This document shows positions 9,995-19,368 of a stretch of 64,000 nt of DNA, one piece after another. The notes beneath the pieces were generated by a model. It saw nothing but the letters and a program-made list of their open reading frames with translations, was not told the origin of the DNA and searched no databases. Every line of letters starts with the position of its first letter. Position 1 is the first letter of the stretch. Both the position numbers and the translations under genes were made by a program. This stretch comes from a bacterium (GTDB lineage Bacteria; Fidelibacterota; Fidelibacteria; Fidelibacterales; Fidelibacteraceae). The stretch lies in NCBI GenBank assembly GCA_963676395.1, contig OY781066.1, positions 992,001 through 1,056,000 of the forward strand, in the 5' to 3' direction.

Positions 9995-11011
9995 ATGGAT
10001 AAAAGAATCGACCTTATTTTAAAGAAAATTAAACTTACTGAAAAACAAAAACTGTGGTTACAAGTTTGCTATGACTTTTTTAGTATTGGTAAGAAAACAA
10101 CAGATGTAAACATTAGAGTTGCTTTGTATAATAAAATCGATAAAAAATTCAATCCAAAATTAATAGACCAGAAATTGCTTGATAACGGTAACAGAATTAC
10201 TCTCCTTGGAGTTTTGTATCTAGATAAAACAAATACAATTTTAAACGATGCAAATAAGCTGATTAATCTTATTAGAAAAATGATTTTAAAAAATTCGGAT
10301 TGTGAAGAATTGTTAACAGATGAATTAGCAAATATAACGGGGTTTTCTCAAATATATATAAACAGGATATTTGATCTTATTCGTGAATTTGGGTATTGGA
10401 ATGGTGCAAGTGGAAGCAATCATATTTATACTAAATATTCTATAAACAAGGAAAAGATTGCCGATTTATATTTATCTGATGACAAAATTGAAGATGTAAT
10501 TATTCAACACTACAAGTCGCTTGAAGAGAGAAGCTTATCTGATGATTATTTTGATTATTACGATCAAATTTATATTGTACATACACCTTGGAAAGAAATA
10601 AATAAATTACAGAATAAATTATTTGAATTGTTAAAAATCAGTAATGATTCGATTGATTTTCAAAATATTGGGAATACTGCACGAACAATTATGTTAAATA
10701 TTTCTGAAGAAGTATTTGATGCTCAAAAACATAAACCACAGAAAGCAGGTATAGATTTAAGTAAAGACAAATTCAAAAACAGATTACATACTTATATTGA
10801 TTCAGTACTAAGCGGAACTTCAAACAGAGAATTTAGACAGCTGGCTGAAGTTTCTATTGAGTATGTAGAAAAATCAATTGATCTTATGAATAAAACAACC
10901 CATAAAACTGATGCGGAGAAACACTTAGCTGAAGTTTGTGTAATTGGCACAATTAGTGCTGTAAATATTATTAAATTAATTGCTGAAATCGAAAATAAAG
11001 AAGAAGTATAG
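9995..11011 (+). CDS. Hypothetical defence-like protein; helical C-terminal domain resembling abortive-infection (AbiJ-associated) domains
   Basis: 338-aa AT-rich ORF with AAGGA RBS; C-terminal W..I......FQNIG..AR......VFD..KH...K.RL..YI...LSG.SN..FR pattern (recalled, not searched). Confidence 0.6.
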   Translation: MDKRIDLILKKIKLTEKQKLWLQVCYDFFSIGKKTTDVNIRVALYNKIDKKFNPKLIDQKLLDNGNRITLLGVLYLDKTNTILNDANKLINLIRKMILKNSDCEELLTDELANITGFSQIYINRIFDLIREFGYWNGASGSNHIYTKYSINKEKIADLYLSDDKIEDVIIQHYKSLEERSLSDDYFDYYDQIYIVHTPWKEINKLQNKLFELLKISNDSIDFQNIGNTARTIMLNISEEVFDAQKHKPQKAGIDLSKDKFKNRLHTYIDSVLSGTSNREFRQLAEVSIEYVEKSIDLMNKTTHKTDAEKHLAEVCVIGTISAVNIIKLIAEIENKEEV

Positions 11012-12077
11012 TGAAATTCCACCCAAATAAAAGAATAACTAAAATTCTTATTTCATCAACCAGTAGATTCGTAGGAGAATTTATTGATAATGATTTATTG
11101 ATAACACATGCTCGGGCAAGTAGTTACAATCAAATTGAAGGAACCTCTGGATTTCATGAAAATCCATTAAGCCGTAATTATTATGTTATTGTAATGGAAA
11201 CTCCTGAAACAAAAAAAGGAACAGTAGTTATACCAAATTATACGTATATGGGTGATGCCGTTACTATTCTTATGAGTATTCTTTTCGGTAAAAGATTTGA
11301 TAATCATGGACGGATAGAAAGCACAGGTAATTTTTATTTACCGGATATATCAAGTAAAACAACTCCATGTATTTCTTCTTTAGCCTATAATAACCATAAA
11401 CCAAGAAAAAATTTAAACATAGCATTAAAATTAAATGAATTTGAAAGAATTTTTCCCTTGTTAACAGATAATTTTAAAGATGAAATATTTTTAAAAATAT
11501 TGTTTTCTGCTGGCCGTTTTTACGTACACGCACTTCAAGAAGCTGAGCAACAGCCTGCGGTGAAATCCTTTCGAATTATTATCAATATTCTGATGATGAA
11601 ATTATTGACGATGATATGAAAAAAGATTTAGAAATTATTGAAACTCAAATTGATAATGGAGACATTATTGCAAAAAGAATAAGAAACCGTTTATTTCAAG
11701 TCAGAAAAAGACACAATCTCACAATACAAAAATTACTAACATCTGATTTTTTTGCTAATTCTGAATCAACTTCCGAGTTTTTTTCTTTAACAATTGAGGG
11801 ATTCACTAAAAGAATAAATGCAGCATATGATTTGCGAAGTCTCTATGTTCATACTGGAACAGAATTTGGCCCATGGTTAACTATCGGCATGCGTGATAAT
11901 TACGAGATTAATTTGGGACAGCCTGTAATCAAAGACAAAACACTAAAAAAACTCATACAGGATTGCCCAACTTTATTTGGACTCGAAAGAATAATGAGAT
12001 ATTGCTTATTGCGTTTTATTCATTTACATGGTTGTAAAATTGATGATTCACTTGAAGGAGATGGATTAATAAAATAA
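11011..12077 (+). pseudogene. Frameshifted HEPN-domain (ApeA-like) gene split into 11011-11619 and 11616-12077
   Basis: The second frame is open from 11547 (ACGEILSNYYQYSDDEIIDDDMKK) and holds the HEPN motif YDLRSLYVH (RxxxxH); the tail of the first ORF looks out-of-frame. Confidence 0.65.
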
Positions 12078-12150
12078 TTTTTAACTATTGTAATTTAATG
12101 TAATTTATTGATAACTTTATTTGAAGAACTGATAACTTAGAAAGAATGAA

Positions 12151-12435
12151 ATGACAAGTAAAGCATATATAATAAGTTATGACCTAAATTCACCTGGGCA
12201 GGATTATTCTAAATTATATGAAAAAATTAAAAGTCTGGGCAAGTGGTGGCATCATTTAGATTCCACATGGATTGTTAAATCTGATAAAAAAGCATCTGAG
12301 ATTAGAGATTATCTTGCTGATTATTTAGATAAAAATGATGAACTGATTGTTATAAAATTAGGAGATTCATGGGCAGGCATCGGGTTTGAAAAGAGAGCTT
12401 ACGATTGGCTTCATGATAACGCATATGAGAAATAA
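12151..12435 (+). CDS. Small Cas2/VapD-like ferredoxin-fold protein (stand-alone)
   Basis: YIISYDL N-terminal strand, STWIV, LDKNDELIVI; 94 aa. Confidence 0.7.
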   Translation: MTSKAYIISYDLNSPGQDYSKLYEKIKSLGKWWHHLDSTWIVKSDKKASEIRDYLADYLDKNDELIVIKLGDSWAGIGFEKRAYDWLHDNAYEK

Positions 12436-12438
12436 ATA

Positions 12439-12963
12439 ATGATATTAAACTTTGAAACCATAGCTTTAATCGTATCCATAACATCAATAATTTTGGCTAT
12501 TGTATCATTACTGTTTTCCGTAATATTTTATTGGTGGTCAAACAAATCAAATAGACAAACTTTTGAGTTATCAAAAGAAATTGAACAAAACACAAATAGG
12601 ATTCATGAATTATTTAATAGATTTTATTCTGATACCTTTGGTTTAATGAAAAGCAATTATTTGGCGATGCAATCTAGTATTTTCAGCCAGCAAGTAAGTT
12701 CGGGTGATTCTTCTTTTTCCCCAGAGGAACAGATTGAAAATATTATTATTTCTCTGTTGTTAAAGTCAAAAGTGTTAACACGTGAAAATATTTGCACTTA
12801 TTTTGAAAACACATATCCATCAAAGCAAATTTCACGACAATCAATTTTGGACGCAATAAATTCCCTTAAAGATAAAAACAAAATTTTCATTAATGATAAT
12901 TTGATTTCAATTTCTACTGAAAAAAAATCTTCTTCTAATGAAGATGAGAGCAATAGTTCATAA
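12439..12963 (+). CDS. Membrane-anchored hypothetical protein
   Basis: One N-terminal TM helix, coiled coil, possible C-terminal wHTH; 3 bp after the previous gene. Confidence 0.7.
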   Translation: MILNFETIALIVSITSIILAIVSLLFSVIFYWWSNKSNRQTFELSKEIEQNTNRIHELFNRFYSDTFGLMKSNYLAMQSSIFSQQVSSGDSSFSPEEQIENIIISLLLKSKVLTRENICTYFENTYPSKQISRQSILDAINSLKDKNKIFINDNLISISTEKKSSSNEDESNSS

Positions 12964-15882: not shown

Positions 15883-15957
15883 TCTCCTGATTTCCAACAA
15901 ATTAAATTTCCATTTGTAAAGTTCAAATTTTATGCACATATTATTGTCTTGAATTAA
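15883..15957 (+). promoter_or_regulatory. Repeated promoter block family 1, copy C (upstream of the Lamassu-like operon)
   Basis: tctcctgatttccaacaaattaaatttccatTTGTAAagttcaaattttatgcaCATATTattgtcttgaattaa. Confidence 0.7.
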
Positions 15958-16034
15958 CTTTACATAAATTTATCTTAATTTGATATTATTCGTTAAATCT
16001 AAAAAAAGTTTAATTAACTTTTCGGAGGGTTATT

Positions 16035-16385
16035 ATGGATCCAATCACATTATCAAGTGCAGCTATTTCAATTATTACTCCTTTTATTGTAAAAACTGGG
16101 GAGGCAATAGTTCAAAAAACAGGAGAAAAACTTTGGAAATGGTTAAATATCAAGTTTAAAAAAGATGAAATAAAAACCAAAACAGGAAATATGAATACAG
16201 GTGATTTTGATATAATTAAAGGTGTAATACTTGATAAAATAAATAACGATAAAGAATTTAAAATAGCACTTGAGAAAGAAATAGAAAAAGCTAAAACATC
16301 AATATCAAAAATGACTGTTATTAATAAAGAAACTGTTGAAAAACAAATCAATATTAACAAGAATTTTGGTGATATTACTATGTGA
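16035..16385 (+). CDS. Small Bell/HeLo-like helical protein with C-terminal amyloid-like motif
   Basis: GGAGG RBS; MDPITLSSAAISIITPFIVKTGEAIVQKTGEKLWKWL N-terminus; ends TVINKETVEKQININKNFGDITM. Confidence 0.7.
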   Translation: MDPITLSSAAISIITPFIVKTGEAIVQKTGEKLWKWLNIKFKKDEIKTKTGNMNTGDFDIIKGVILDKINNDKEFKIALEKEIEKAKTSISKMTVINKETVEKQININKNFGDITM

Positions 16386-16408
16386 TACTATTGAAAATAC
16401 TTATTAAG

Positions 16409-16936
16409 ATGAAGCAATTAAACATTAACAAAAATTTTGGGGAAATCTATCTAGAAAAAACAACCAGATTTTCTAGCCGATTCAAGCGATTAAACGAAGA
16501 AATTGAAAAGGATCAAAAAATTGATGAAGTTATCGATAAACTTCAAACTTATAATAAATCAGCTGATTTAAGAAGTATGCCAGAAAAACTAGAAGATGGT
16601 GGTTTTTCGAAAGAAGAAATTTATCAAGCAAAATTAAGAAAACAACAATATTGGATGAGTTTTGAAAAACATAAATTCTACAAAACAGCTCAAATAATTG
16701 ATTCAGAAATATTTGCATTGTTGAAATTTAATTTTGACACTTATATTTATCCTTTAATTTTGCAAAACGAACCAAAAAATAAAATCTTACTTGAATTAAA
16801 TTCAAAAGTTATATTGCCAATATTAACATTATTGAATAAAGAAGGCGAGGAAGATACTTATCTAAACTATAGTGTTGATGATTTACTTGGCATGTTATAT
16901 TTTATTACTGGCAAGTGTCATATTAATTGGAAATAA
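16409..16936 (+). CDS. ABC-three-component C-terminal-domain protein (LmuA position) with an N-terminal motif and no enzymatic effector
   Basis: EKLEDGG, A..RKQQY, GMLYFITGKCHINW pattern; first gene of the 3-gene ABC-3C unit; ATG at 16409 preferred to GTG at 16382. Confidence 0.75.
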   Translation: MKQLNINKNFGEIYLEKTTRFSSRFKRLNEEIEKDQKIDEVIDKLQTYNKSADLRSMPEKLEDGGFSKEEIYQAKLRKQQYWMSFEKHKFYKTAQIIDSEIFALLKFNFDTYIYPLILQNEPKNKILLELNSKVILPILTLLNKEGEEDTYLNYSVDDLLGMLYFITGKCHINWK

Positions 16937-16937
16937 A

Positions 16938-17459
16938 ATGATTGTATATAATCAAGCTTATGATGTCTATTACACAATTTTTAGGATGATTCATTTACTT
17001 TATAGTATCAGAAAAAGTAATAGTATAGATTTGGATCGATTAAGAATTTACGATTTTTATTTATTATTTCCCAGTGCGAGTCATAACATGACTATAAAAC
17101 GTAATGAAGGTGATATTCGCCAGTTGAGAAAAGATTTGATTGACAAAAATAAAAATCCCTTCGAAATTCTTTATAACCAGAAAAAAATATTCGATAATAT
17201 AAAGAATTTTCAAATAACTTCATTAAGATGTCTATCTTCTTTTGGGCTAATAAATAATGATTTTGAAAAATCAAAGACGATTATTATTGAAGATAATTCT
17301 CTTTTGGAAGAAGCTATAGATAATATTGGGAAGCTGACTTCAAGGCAAAAAAACATGTTAATCTTTATTCAAGAAAGTTTCTCAAAATTCCCTATGACGG
17401 GCGTAGATGGAATTAAAAATCGTACCAAATTAATGGAAAGCAAGTATGATGCAGAATAA
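16938..17459 (+). CDS. ABC-three-component middle component (MC5-like; LmuC position)
   Basis: MIVYNQAYDVYYTIFR, RLRIYDFYLLFP, G.DGIKNRTKLMESKYD; lies between the CTD gene and the ATPase. Confidence 0.8.
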   Translation: MIVYNQAYDVYYTIFRMIHLLYSIRKSNSIDLDRLRIYDFYLLFPSASHNMTIKRNEGDIRQLRKDLIDKNKNPFEILYNQKKIFDNIKNFQITSLRCLSSFGLINNDFEKSKTIIIEDNSLLEEAIDNIGKLTSRQKNMLIFIQESFSKFPMTGVDGIKNRTKLMESKYDAE

Positions 17460-19368
17460 CTTATTTGTAAATCGATTATTAATTTATACCGAAGAGGGTC
17501 GAATAGCTTACGATGAAGAATTCCATAAAGGTATAAACATTATTAGAGGACATAATAGTAGCGGAAAATCCACAATTACTCATTTTATATTTTTTGCATT
17601 AGGGGGTGCTTTCAATAATTTTGTTCCAGAAGCCAAAAAATGTTCTACTGTATATATTGAAATTGAAGTCAACAATGCGGTCATTTCCCTTAAGAGAAAT
17701 ATTGAGAAAGATATTTATGATAAAATTAATTCGAAATCATCTTTATACTTTTATTGGGGTTCCTTAGAAAAAGGATTAAGAAGTAGTAAGGATTGGTATA
17801 AATTTGGTTATAACTCAACCAAGAATACAAAGAGTTTTTCAAATGTGCTTTTTGAAAACATGGATTTACCTATAATATATGCTGATAATAATATAACTTT
17901 TTATCAAATTTTACGACTCTTGTATATTGATCAAGAATCTCCAACAAGTTCTTTATTTTATTATGATCAATTTGATAGTCAAATTACCAGAGAAACAGTA
18001 TCAGAAATATTATTAGGATTATATAGCAATGATCTTTACACAAAAAAAATGAGATTGAGAACAGCGAGAAAGGAACTTGAAAGTATAAATGATGAAATTA
18101 GAGTTACAAAACGATTTTTCAAGGACCCGAACTCACTTGACTCTGGGTTCTTAGAAAGTAAAATCAAGAGCCTAGAAGAACAAATATCCTCTATTGATAA
18201 TCAAATAACAAATATTCGTAATGGAAATAAAACCGTTGAATTTAAAAAAACCTCTAAGATGGAATTTGAAAATATTGAAGGCGAAATAATAAATACAAGA
18301 AAACATCTCACTGAAACAAAAAATAAAATTGCAACACTAAATAGTGAAATTGAGGATACAAGCTACTTTATCTATACTTTAAAAAGTAAAATTGAAGCGT
18401 TAAGAAATTCAATCAAAACAAGAAATTTTTTAGATAATATTGATATTGAATTTTGTCCAAAATGTTTATCAAAAATAGATTCTAAAGCAAATATTGGGCA
18501 ATGTAATTTATGTAAACAAGAAATTAGTATAGATAATACTGGAGAAGCTGAAGCAAGAAAGATTGAACAAGAAATTAGTTTTCAAATACTTGAATCAACT
18601 CAAATTCTTGAAAAGATTCAAAGAGAACGTATAGATTATAAATCTGTGTATAAAGGAATTCAAGCTAAGTTGTTTGTCCTTCAACAGAAACAAAACTCTA
18701 TTATCAAAGATGTAAAATCATATCAACAAGAAGTACTTGACAGTCTTTTTACTAAAAAAGGGTTTATTGAAGGAGAATCTTTACAGTATCGAACCATGCT
18801 TGAAAAAGCTACATTATATGACGAATTGCTTGACATTAAATACTCCTTAAAAAAAGAAATTGAGTTACTGGATAAACAAATTTTACAAATTGAATTTACT
18901 CAAAACAGGCTCAAAGTTAGAATAAATGATACGATCAAAAAAGAAGCTCTTTATTTACTAAATAATGATTTAAATCGGCAAGATGAGTTTCGCAATGCAA
19001 GTGAATTCTATATTAATTATTCAAATAATATCGCTTTTTTATCAAGTAAGTATGCAAAATACTCAGCAAGCTCTAATTTTTACCTGAAAATCACTGCGCG
19101 TTTTGCAATATTTTTAGCATCCCTATCTATTCCTGAAATGAGATTTCCTAGATTTATATTTGCTGATAATATGGAAGATAAAGGAATTGAAATAGGAAGA
19201 GCTCAAAATCTTCAAAAAGTTTTAATAAAACGTTTAAATGAGTTTGATTCCAAAAATTATCAATTGATATACACTACCTCGTATATTACAGATGAGCTTA
19301 ATGAGAGTCCTTATGTCGTAGGTGAATTTTATACTGAAACTAATCGGAGTCTTAAAAATATTTCATAA
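17446..19368 (+). CDS. lmuB: SMC/Rad50-like ABC ATPase of the ABC-3C (Lamassu-like) system
   Basis: Walker A GHNSSGKST, YIDQ Q-loop, long coiled coils with CPKC...CNLC zinc motif, YSASS signature, FIFADNMEDKG Walker B. Confidence 0.85.
   Translation: MMQNNLFVNRLLIYTEEGRIAYDEEFHKGINIIRGHNSSGKSTITHFIFFALGGAFNNFVPEAKKCSTVYIEIEVNNAVISLKRNIEKDIYDKINSKSSLYFYWGSLEKGLRSSKDWYKFGYNSTKNTKSFSNVLFENMDLPIIYADNNITFYQILRLLYIDQESPTSSLFYYDQFDSQITRETVSEILLGLYSNDLYTKKMRLRTARKELESINDEIRVTKRFFKDPNSLDSGFLESKIKSLEEQISSIDNQITNIRNGNKTVEFKKTSKMEFENIEGEIINTRKHLTETKNKIATLNSEIEDTSYFIYTLKSKIEALRNSIKTRNFLDNIDIEFCPKCLSKIDSKANIGQCNLCKQEISIDNTGEAEARKIEQEISFQILESTQILEKIQRERIDYKSVYKGIQAKLFVLQQKQNSIIKDVKSYQQEVLDSLFTKKGFIEGESLQYRTMLEKATLYDELLDIKYSLKKEIELLDKQILQIEFTQNRLKVRINDTIKKEALYLLNNDLNRQDEFRNASEFYINYSNNIAFLSSKYAKYSASSNFYLKITARFAIFLASLSIPEMRFPRFIFADNMEDKGIEIGRAQNLQKVLIKRLNEFDSKNYQLIYTTSYITDELNESPYVVGEFYTETNRSLKNIS

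Follow-up and report, generated by a model that had tools for sequence, protein, structure and literature searches.

Lamassu is among the commonest bacterial defence families, and the liberation and oligomerisation of its LmuA subunit have just been solved for nuclease effectors. In the Salmonella system (Li et al., bioRxiv 10.1101/2025.03.14.643221), the C-terminal part of LmuA (C-LmuA) is an oligomerisation domain that is sequestered by two LmuB and LmuC and, once liberated, oligomerises into the active form. The N-terminal part (N-LmuA) is without contacts, which makes effector domains swappable, and LmuA proteins of the CTD8 and CTD9 types, which carry lipase domains there, are predicted to form higher-order cyclic oligomers. 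Here we describe a Lamassu operon in a 64,000-nucleotide stretch of DNA from a bacterium of the Fidelibacteraceae (assembly GCA_963676395.1, contig OY781066.1, positions 992,001 to 1,056,000 of the forward strand; hereafter the window), in which a CTD9-type LmuA that lacks a fused effector domain begins with a 12-residue peptide closely matching the end of a small helical protein encoded just upstream.

Paired peptides of this kind are known from amyloid signalling. As set out in a preprint on Bab/Agp (Ibarlosa et al., bioRxiv 10.1101/2024.11.07.622273), Bab of E. coli ECOR25 (motif BASS11) is a 109-residue protein in which four helices cup a hydrophobic helix 1 and which ends in a motif of ~20 residues. 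The adjacent sensor carries the motif at its N-terminus, the peptides form fibrils, and asparagine-to-proline (beta-breaker) changes in either motif copy abolish defence. The same source describes an N-terminal "MEPIS" region of Bab that is common to Bell, Hell and the Avast2 N-terminus, reports mutation of Bab residues D2, G11, Y14 and D15, and places BASS11 as already departing from the criterion of a NOD-like receptor (NLR) partner. BASS motifs as a whole, according to Dyrka et al. (bioRxiv 10.1101/2020.01.06.895854), are ~25 residues long, enriched in Q, N, G, V and I, depleted of K, P and L, and built of pseudo-repeats. Their genes form collinear pairs whose spacing is tiny or negative, and other effector bodies bear these motifs too. 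Signalling of this type from sensor to executor has so far been shown in bacteria for Bab/Agp only and predicted for NLR pairs.

A matched peptide pair at a gene junction

The small protein, P0001, ends in ...VEKQININKNFGDITM followed by a stop codon (also given as ...MTVINKETVEKQININKNFGDITM) when the open reading frame (ORF) at 16035-16385 is translated, and the next protein, P0002, starts from the ATG at 16409 as MKQLNINKNFGEIYL (also given as MKQLNINKNFGEIYLEKTTRFSSRF). A sequence-only reading of the window had pointed to a repeated 12-codon motif at this junction, with 10 of 12 residues identical, one I/L and one D/E change and five synonymous codon differences, and all of these values were reproduced. 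That reading also held that the motif is conserved as protein rather than as DNA. We found that the two copies, which share 28 of 36 bases, differ by 5.5 changes at 5.7 synonymous sites and by 2.5 changes at 30.3 non-synonymous sites (Nei-Gojobori), and that their DNA likeness ends at the motif borders. The saturation of synonymous sites with the residues kept rules out, as had been claimed, both a recent neutral duplication and an assembly stutter, and this pattern of substitution indicates that the motif is under purifying selection.

The match is also unusual within the genome. In a six-frame translation of the entire 2.34-Mb genome, a loose pattern for the motif core has two matches only, both of them at this locus. 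When the final 30 residues of each ORF were compared with the first 30 of the next ORF on the same strand, this pair alone among 1432 adjacent pairs reached a 12-mer identity of 10, the runners-up (2 pairs) reaching 7, and none of 1000 shuffles of the P0002 head attained the actual alignment score. These analyses confirmed that the matched 12-residue pair is real and far beyond chance. A Logan contig from the sole public DNA run containing the stretch (n = 1; no RNA run was listed as containing it among public sequencing runs) covers 15900-17500 with zero differences; as this run may be the DNA's own source, the agreement rules out an assembler-specific stutter only.

The sequence-only reading allowed that the true start of the CTD gene might lie downstream of the motif. 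The only start candidates upstream of the block TRFS.RF..LNEE, which lies directly past the motif and is conserved in all relatives, are GTG 16382, TTG 16391 and ATG 16409. Since every candidate is upstream of the motif and a conserved block follows it, the motif is translated. P0002 starts at either ATG 16409 or GTG 16382; the latter overlaps the P0001 stop codon and was taken by the database gene caller (P0005), and in related loci the CTD9 start likewise touches or overlaps the effector stop.

P0002 consists of the motif, a helical linker and a CTD9 domain (Pfam PF20285, residues 57-174, E 3.3e-26, 92.5 bits against a cut-off of 27.9). The 56 residues ahead of CTD9 hold no recognised domain, and an N-terminal effector domain is absent, which makes this a variant Lamassu architecture. 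AlphaFold2 (AF2) gave residues 1-17 a predicted local distance difference test (pLDDT) score below 50 and modelled helices thereafter. A search for longer, fused CTD9 relatives found none among 956 candidates, which is weak evidence, no match to P0002 was found in a phage collection, and among 61 related genomes searched CTD9 was found in the own genome only. Residues 15-93 (window 16451-16687) gave a weak match to Pfam HeLo ("Prion-inhibition and propagation"; E 0.042, 14.1 bits, cut-off 23.2), which is probably due to the coiled-coil composition of the linker.

The four-gene operon

Downstream of P0002, P0003 matches the Pfam family Middle Component 5 (MC5) above the family cut-off, and translation of P0004 reveals a Walker A motif (GHNSSGKST) and two CxxC motifs resembling a zinc hook (Table 1). 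LmuB, LmuC and an LmuA with a family C-terminal domain (CTD) are thus all present, and the N-terminally fused effector domain of Lamassu is missing. By these family assignments the operon is a four-gene Lamassu, a system of the ABC three-component (ABC-3C) kind, and would have an anti-phage role by family, the small protein being the presumed cell-death executor. Its G+C content of 25-28%, against 38% for the genome, is as expected of an acquired island. In DNA this rich in A+T, scanning for promoters and terminators gave no informative signal.

Table 1. Positions of operon genes and motif features in the window
Feature	Position	Strand	Basis or remark
Small helical protein gene, P0001, 116 residues	16035..16385	+	ORF, translation
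Hydrophobic helix 1 of P0001, residues 3-18	16041..16088	+	A2 alignment, AF2; best-conserved region in the family
C-terminal motif region of P0001, residues 92-116	16308..16382	+	Degenerate first half-repeat VINKETVE and full second half-repeat
Motif copy 1, KQININKNFGDI	16341..16376	+	P0001 residues 103-114
Spacer, 23 bases, P0001 stop to ATG 16409	16386..16408	+	Coding if GTG 16382 is the start
Effector-less LmuA gene, P0002, 175 residues (184 from GTG 16382)	16409..16936	+	Pfam CTD9
Motif copy 2, KQLNINKNFGEI	16412..16447	+	P0002 residues 2-13
LmuC, Middle Component 5 of ABC-3C, P0003	16938..17459	+	Pfam MC5 PF20291 E 3.4e-36; PADLOC LmuC E 3.7e-5
LmuB, SMC/Rad50-like ABC ATPase, P0004	17446..19368	+	PADLOC LmuB E 4.4e-33; Pfam AAA_23 E 2.6e-11

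Related loci carry matched peptides of several classes

Using P0002 and two close database relatives (A1), we scanned one genome per species and the JGI/ENA metagenomes with two patterns, the motif itself and the C-terminal KCHINWK; the first is biased towards motif carriers, the second is without such bias. The scans returned 7 and 31 loci, 38 in all, and 33 of these were examined for the upstream gene, the other five (L033, L036-L039) being too short. Wherever the upstream DNA is long enough, L009 (cut) excepted, the CTD9 head is N/G-rich and a like peptide is present on the gene just upstream, the peptide-bearing gene of L007 lying ~770 bases upstream of CTD9. Homologues without a matched pair, which would have spoken against the sequence-only reading, were not what we encountered: matched pairs are present across 20 non-redundant loci. 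The order of small ORF, CTD9, MC5-sized ORF and ABC-ATPase-sized ORF was seen in 10 of the 12 related loci listed, the exceptions being L034 (short contig) and L007 (effector further upstream), and at L023 the identity of MC5 and ATPase was confirmed by Pfam.

By sequence comparison the motif falls into at least five unlike classes, each matched between partners. Class 1, that of the window, comprises 14 non-redundant loci from Bacteroidota metagenome-assembled genomes (MAGs), Chitinophagaceae, Marinoscillum and a Holdemania MAG; its effector tail reads ..NIxNxGxIEKQINIQxNxGNIQM and its CTD9 head M.Q.I.N...I..Q[LV]NI..N.G.I.L, and the effector body is either a P0001-type helical protein (~117 residues) or a 90-96-residue protein with two hydrophobic helices. 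Classes 2a (L034; NKVKIKNNTVFNGNITGIK vs DQIKLKGNSALHGDIIGIK) and 2b (L035; NITINGSRNKVVGGDDNSR vs NIDINGDSNKIVLGNDNSK) have single-helix effectors of 57-63 residues. Class 3, on gut Prevotella-like contigs (L008, L019-L032), pairs MDINIKGNPGTGNTFQEVHIGTVQNYNPNATTVINY with ..INLSVNGDPGTGNSFNDTKIRKVDNYNPNAREVNNY at the N-terminus of both proteins, and its effector body of 171-226 residues has no Pfam family; L007 bears a variant of this motif at the N-terminus of a 148-residue protein. Class 4 is found on plasmid NZ_CP049243.1 of Allorhizobium pseudoryzae DSM 19479 (L043), where the end of a 64-residue "hypothetical protein" starting MDFITAHF... reads VNQSGSKAGGDIVGGNKS and the next protein starts VTQSNASAGGDIVAGNKT. 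This second protein, annotated as "ABC-three component system protein", is 25.7% identical to P0002 and is followed by MC5 and an AAA ATPase.

Some of these loci have further features of their own. At L043 (6966-8184) the Lamassu-like operon adjoins a gene for a DarT family ssDNA ADP-ribosyltransferase, which places it in a plasmid defence island of a cultured type strain. Plasmid pA of Agrobacterium sp. CGMCC 11546 (L044, 2241-2998) holds a decayed Rhizobiaceae copy in which the effector is frameshifted just before the motif and a Mu-type transposase and TniB stand after the CTD9 gene in the place of MC5 and the ATPase. At L020 (3398-3880) a class 3 effector is stopped just after its N-terminal motif, and may be a pseudogene or a sequencing error.

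The peptides match between partners and move between effector bodies

We scored every whole effector against every CTD9 head in a set of 20 non-redundant loci, from which loci with an effector at least 90% identical to a kept one, and L020 with its interrupted effector, had been dropped. The mean score was 69.4 for cognate and 41.5 for non-cognate pairs, and none of 100000 permutations of the pairing attained the cognate mean. The matrix is block-shaped, with a cross-class maximum of 39 and a same-class non-cognate mean of 58.5, and the window pair, which shares an unusual N-K-N-F-G, ranks first in both directions. In addition, all 10 aligned pairs of effector and CTD9 protein, that of the Rhizobiaceae plasmid included, scored above every one of 1000 head shuffles. 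Since the loci are mutually related, they amount to some five or six independent events, the classes, and not to 20. The distribution of motif classes indicates that replacement of the motif on both partners together has taken place several times across loci.

The motif also appears to be separable from the protein that carries it. When the helical and the two-helix (two-transmembrane-helix, 2-TM) effector families were compared by hhalign, only the final 27 columns, those of the motif, were common to both (probability 97.2%, E 3.5e-11), and in a profile-profile comparison effector tails gathered from P0001 alone matched CTD9 heads over 28 columns (probability 95.6%, E 1.3e-8). Taken at the level of sequence, the motif is portable, a module carried by several small effector bodies of unrelated kinds. 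In the two-helix effectors (L016 3675-3962, with equivalents in L006 and L010-L013) E-M-E-P-I-I-L opens the second hydrophobic helix, as seen by eye and unreported by hhalign; this suggests that the "MEPI" helix could be a conserved killing element, with the other helices dispensable.

These results bear on whether the pair has a function at all. It might be a leftover of a local duplication, of gene conversion or of a split fused gene, or an assembly artefact, and the position of the copies, 71 bases apart in adjacent genes, is what such an origin would leave. That account is contradicted by the saturation of synonymous sites with residues kept, by the presence of such pairs, differing in motif sequence, at dozens of loci in several phyla, and by a second assembly that reproduces the stretch, possibly from the same reads. 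We give it next to no weight, and in our judgement the synonymous saturation and the 20-locus permutation test have already refuted it. Fusion of the two genes by read-through or frameshift was considered separately and rejected: the reading frames of the two genes differ, and in class 3 both partners have the motif at the N-terminus. We conclude that the matched peptides are very probably a functional link between CTD9 and the small protein.

The small effector family

P0001 has a hydrophobic N-terminal helix, MDPITLSSAAISIITPFIV, four more helices and an unstructured C-terminal motif. It belongs to no Pfam or PADLOC family, and a word-indexed search found no relative of it; an exhaustive phmmer search of 1.84 billion representatives did, returning 49 at E<=1e-3. 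We aligned P0001 with 33 of these (A2), the other 15, which are shorter, longer or partial, being omitted by eye. The A2 proteins are ~115 residues long each and have a common N-terminus and tail. Their N-terminal consensus is MExITLAxTAxxLxxPFLxKxGE, an M-E-P-I-T-L followed by a hydrophobic stretch (P0001 starts MDPITL), and their tail consensus is QQNIxNxGxIEKQINIQxNSGNIQM, then a stop. AF2 run on A2 predicted helices at residues 3-18, 24-40, 43-50, 55-71 and 73-91 with a mean pLDDT of 73, and residues 95-116 scored below 50. Position 11 of P0001 is I, and its likeness to the MEPIS region of Bab, Bell, Hell and Avast2 is one of name and published description.

In 401 genomes of the phylum we found one true match to the effector family, in the own genome, and two weak coiled-coil hits in long ORFs, and a scan of viral contigs with A4 gave 184 pattern matches and no relatives. 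In the ESM Atlas P0001 matched hypothetical clusters only, HetE-N (PF20701) being assigned to 11% of the members of one. HetE-N was found in none of 301 phylum genomes, a result made uninformative by control genomes that were equally silent; it did not appear in the list of families that the 34 A2 members matched, and a literature search on it yielded nothing relevant. No Bab or Bell structure was among the fold-search matches of P0001.

A proposed amyloid-type link and its alternatives

How might the two peptides act? N, Q, G, I and V together make up 64% of effector tails against 27% of the bodies, and 59% of CTD9 heads against 29% of the remainder, and effector tails are depleted of P (0.4%), L (2.2%) and K (5.4%). 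The family motif spans ~25 residues in two half-repeats, each ending N-x-G-x-I, and AF2 gave neither motif copy a confident monomer fold. As in BASS pairs, a common motif lies on the end of an effector and on the N-terminus of the adjacent collinear gene product, with composition and length to suit (the window match covering ~12 residues only); the partner is a Lamassu CTD9 protein and not an NLR with a NACHT or NB-ARC domain. The likeness to BASS/RHIM-type motifs proposed in the sequence-only reading fits by analogy in composition, in position and in the Bell/Babybell-like character of the partner. With moderate confidence, we favour a BASS-like amyloid or homotypic signalling link through which liberated, oligomerising CTD9 would template and activate a Bell/Babybell-like membrane effector. 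That this link works by amyloid-type templating as such seems to us somewhat better supported than not, the cross-beta form being suggested by composition and analogy only.

We envisage the following sequence of events. At rest, one CTD9 protein would be sequestered by LmuB2-LmuC. On sensing phage or plasmid DNA, LmuB would release it, and the liberated CTD9 proteins would oligomerise. The clustered N-terminal motifs could then nucleate a cross-beta (beta-arch) fold that would template the identical motif on the small protein, and templating would free the N-terminal helix of that protein for membrane attack and abortive infection. Since C-LmuA oligomerises once liberated, Lamassu supplies the trigger that an amyloid nucleus needs, and with the lipase replaced by a nucleating peptide the system would follow the NLR logic of oligomerising, nucleating and templating. 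The binding of the two motifs to each other, amyloid-type templating, membrane killing and the order of these steps are what we infer from the comparisons above. As a broader proposition, that a Lamassu DNA sensor related to structural maintenance of chromosomes (SMC) proteins can signal by prion-like amyloid templating of separate small membrane-killing proteins, we consider the case evenly balanced.

Several observations weigh against this reading. The case for a cross-beta fold is one of composition and analogy, and the first half-repeat of the window effector is VINKETVE rather than NIxNxGxIE, its glycine being lost. The first half-repeat is absent from the window CTD9 and present in the other 14 members of A3, which leaves a shorter matched core; at ~12 residues the match is short for BASS (~25 residues). 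K and E are conserved in the motif, whereas BASS are described as K-depleted. As to the effector, Pfam gave P0001 no tie to Bell, Babybell or HeLo, the best match of the effector profile in a sequence search of the PDB was an unrelated chain (E 0.77), and Foldseek against the PDB found nothing for P0001 at E<=0.001. The best Z of VIA-align was 6.0; the coiled-coil (CC) chain of the ZAR1 resistosome reached 5.4 and CARD/death domains about 5. These values are within the chance range for helical bundles and provide no fold link for P0001. Finally, inside class 1 the mean score was 58.2 for cognate and 55.2 for non-cognate pairs, the cognate mean being attained by 6117 of 100000 permutations, and when the window was left out the values were 58.3 and 57.8 (38823 of 100000). 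Specificity within the window's class is family-wide and not locus-specific.

The last result limits one claim of the sequence-only reading, that selection keeps the two peptides matched. The comparison within and between loci that it had proposed was positive across the 20 loci (0 of 100000 permutations) and negative inside class 1 (6117 of 100000), and as cognate pairs have no advantage inside the class, selection keeps a shared family motif and not a locus-specific code. The claim is supported in the former sense, in which homologues carry matched pairs, with the qualification that locus-specific matching is absent in the window's class, the window pair itself being the exception.

Loss of the first half-repeat on both partners in the window is suggestive of co-evolution. 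Read from the GTG start, the residues at the half-repeat position of P0002 (window 16382-16408) are ILLKILIKM. Translation of the same bases in the third frame gives D-T-I-E-N-T-Y-stop, in which the Q-x-I-x-N of the lost half-repeat can be faintly recognised. On this ground one may speculate that a small deletion shifted the frame and so removed the first half-repeat from this CTD9. A complex prediction with two copies each of the effector tail (78-116) and CTD9 head (1-40), run without controls, scored 0.01 against a mark of 0.32, which speaks neither for nor against binding.

A matched peptide might also serve as a docking tag that involves no amyloid: the two copies would pair as a small stable beta-sheet or zipper, a constant tether equivalent to a non-covalent fusion, and the effector would be activated by the clustering of CTD9 alone, without prion-like spread. 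A matched, selected and portable motif would be expected of such a tag just as much; the ~12 matched residues of the window are short for an amyloid core, and a permanent tether would restore the state of classical Lamassu, in which the effector domain is fused to the CTD. However, the composition and the N-x-G-x-I half-repeats are those described for amyloid signalling motifs, and the nearest experimentally studied architecture, Bab/Agp, uses amyloid templating. Moreover, templating needs homotypic sequence, whereas the halves of a heterodimer tag need not be alike. We therefore regard a docking tag as unlikely, if deserving of attention.

It is considerably harder to credit that both peptides are a common recognition tag for a third party, such as LmuC, LmuB or a host protease for which the motif would be a degron, with co-sequestration, competition or co-degradation as the outcome. 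Sequestration of C-LmuA by LmuB2 and LmuC offers a precedent for such a partner, and either terminus of a protein can bear a recognition tag, just as the motif is C-terminal on some effectors here and N-terminal on others. Yet five or more unlike classes of motif exist, and no partners are conserved other than the four genes of the operon itself; the published structure, moreover, shows no visible contacts of N-LmuA with LmuB or LmuC. Against both alternatives, our preferred reading remains the BASS-like link between CTD9 and the small protein.

The region upstream of the operon

Upstream of the Lamassu operon, window 9995-12963 is a block of low G+C (27-30%). It opens with three overlapping genes for proteins of 338, 202 and 153 residues, none of which has a Pfam or PADLOC family, and continues with a 94-residue protein that matches DUF3884 (E 2.8e-5) and, weakly, Cas2-like proteins (PADLOC Cas2b E 6.8e-5), and with a 174-residue protein that has an N-terminal hydrophobic helix. 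The block may be a second, undescribed defence module beside Lamassu.

Discussion

An LmuA made of an oligomerisation domain and a matched peptide of 12-40 residues, next to a small protein of membrane type, joins two fields. We found no literature that connects Lamassu, ABC-3C or SMC with amyloid signalling, and the available text of the Bab/Agp preprint (bioRxiv 10.1101/2024.11.07.622273) contains no occurrence of ABC, SMC, CTD or Lamassu; the founding work on ABC-3C (Krishnan et al. 2020) may bear on priority. Novel here would be the amyloid-type coupling of effectors in another family of sensors; the same could be called a new subtype of Lamassu, with four genes. The puzzle, already published, of Lamassu systems that "seemingly lost the effector domain" would find a concrete answer in it, and if the proposal is true, the clade of effector-less Lamassu is explained. 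Amyloid signalling would then be a general plug-and-play connector of bacterial immunity whose use is not confined to NLR and TGP sensors, whose motif classes and effector bodies can be exchanged, and which extends to ordinary unicellular bacteria. The loci would also provide natural sets of orthogonal motif classes for the study of specificity and small, tractable objects such as the 64-residue effector of Allorhizobium pseudoryzae DSM 19479.

Among known systems, one parallel in logic is that of HET-s/HET-S with NWD2 (fungal HRAM), which has an oligomerising sensor, an N-terminal motif, a templated C-terminal motif of two pseudo-repeats and release of an N-terminal membrane helix; kingdom, motif and sensor class differ, and no homology is claimed. 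The pairs of Bell and NLR proteins with motifs BASS1-10 resemble the present loci in that the C-terminus of a small helical effector is matched to the N-terminus of the next product, in collinear genes with little or negative spacing, with the same compositional bias (N, Q, G, V, I up; P, L down), pseudo-repeats and occurrence on other bodies. In contrast to those pairs, the receptor here is not a NACHT or NB-ARC NLR, and in one class both partners bear the motif N-terminally. Multicellular Actinobacteria and Cyanobacteria are emphasised there, whereas the present loci come from Bacteroidota, a Holdemania MAG and Rhizobiaceae.

With canonical Lamassu, as described in Li et al. (bioRxiv 10.1101/2025.03.14.643221) and Haudiquet et al. 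(bioRxiv 10.1101/2025.04.02.646746), the operon has in common LmuB, an MC5-type LmuC, a CTD9-type LmuA C-domain, the usual gene order and overlapping genes. It differs in that its LmuA is without an enzymatic N-domain, in place of which the operon has a fourth gene and a matched peptide. The Bab/Agp system is similar in its helical executor of ~110 residues, which begins with a hydrophobic helix and ends in a motif of ~20-25 residues, in the motif on the N-terminus of the adjacent collinear gene product, in its defence context, and in motifs that are N/G-rich and of a design that would be sensitive to beta-breakers. The MEPITL start, helix count, size and tail of the P0001 family fit the published account of Bab, to which it is likened by description only. 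The sensor sets the two apart, for here that place would be taken by the CTD9 adaptor of a three-component, SMC-like Lamassu machine.

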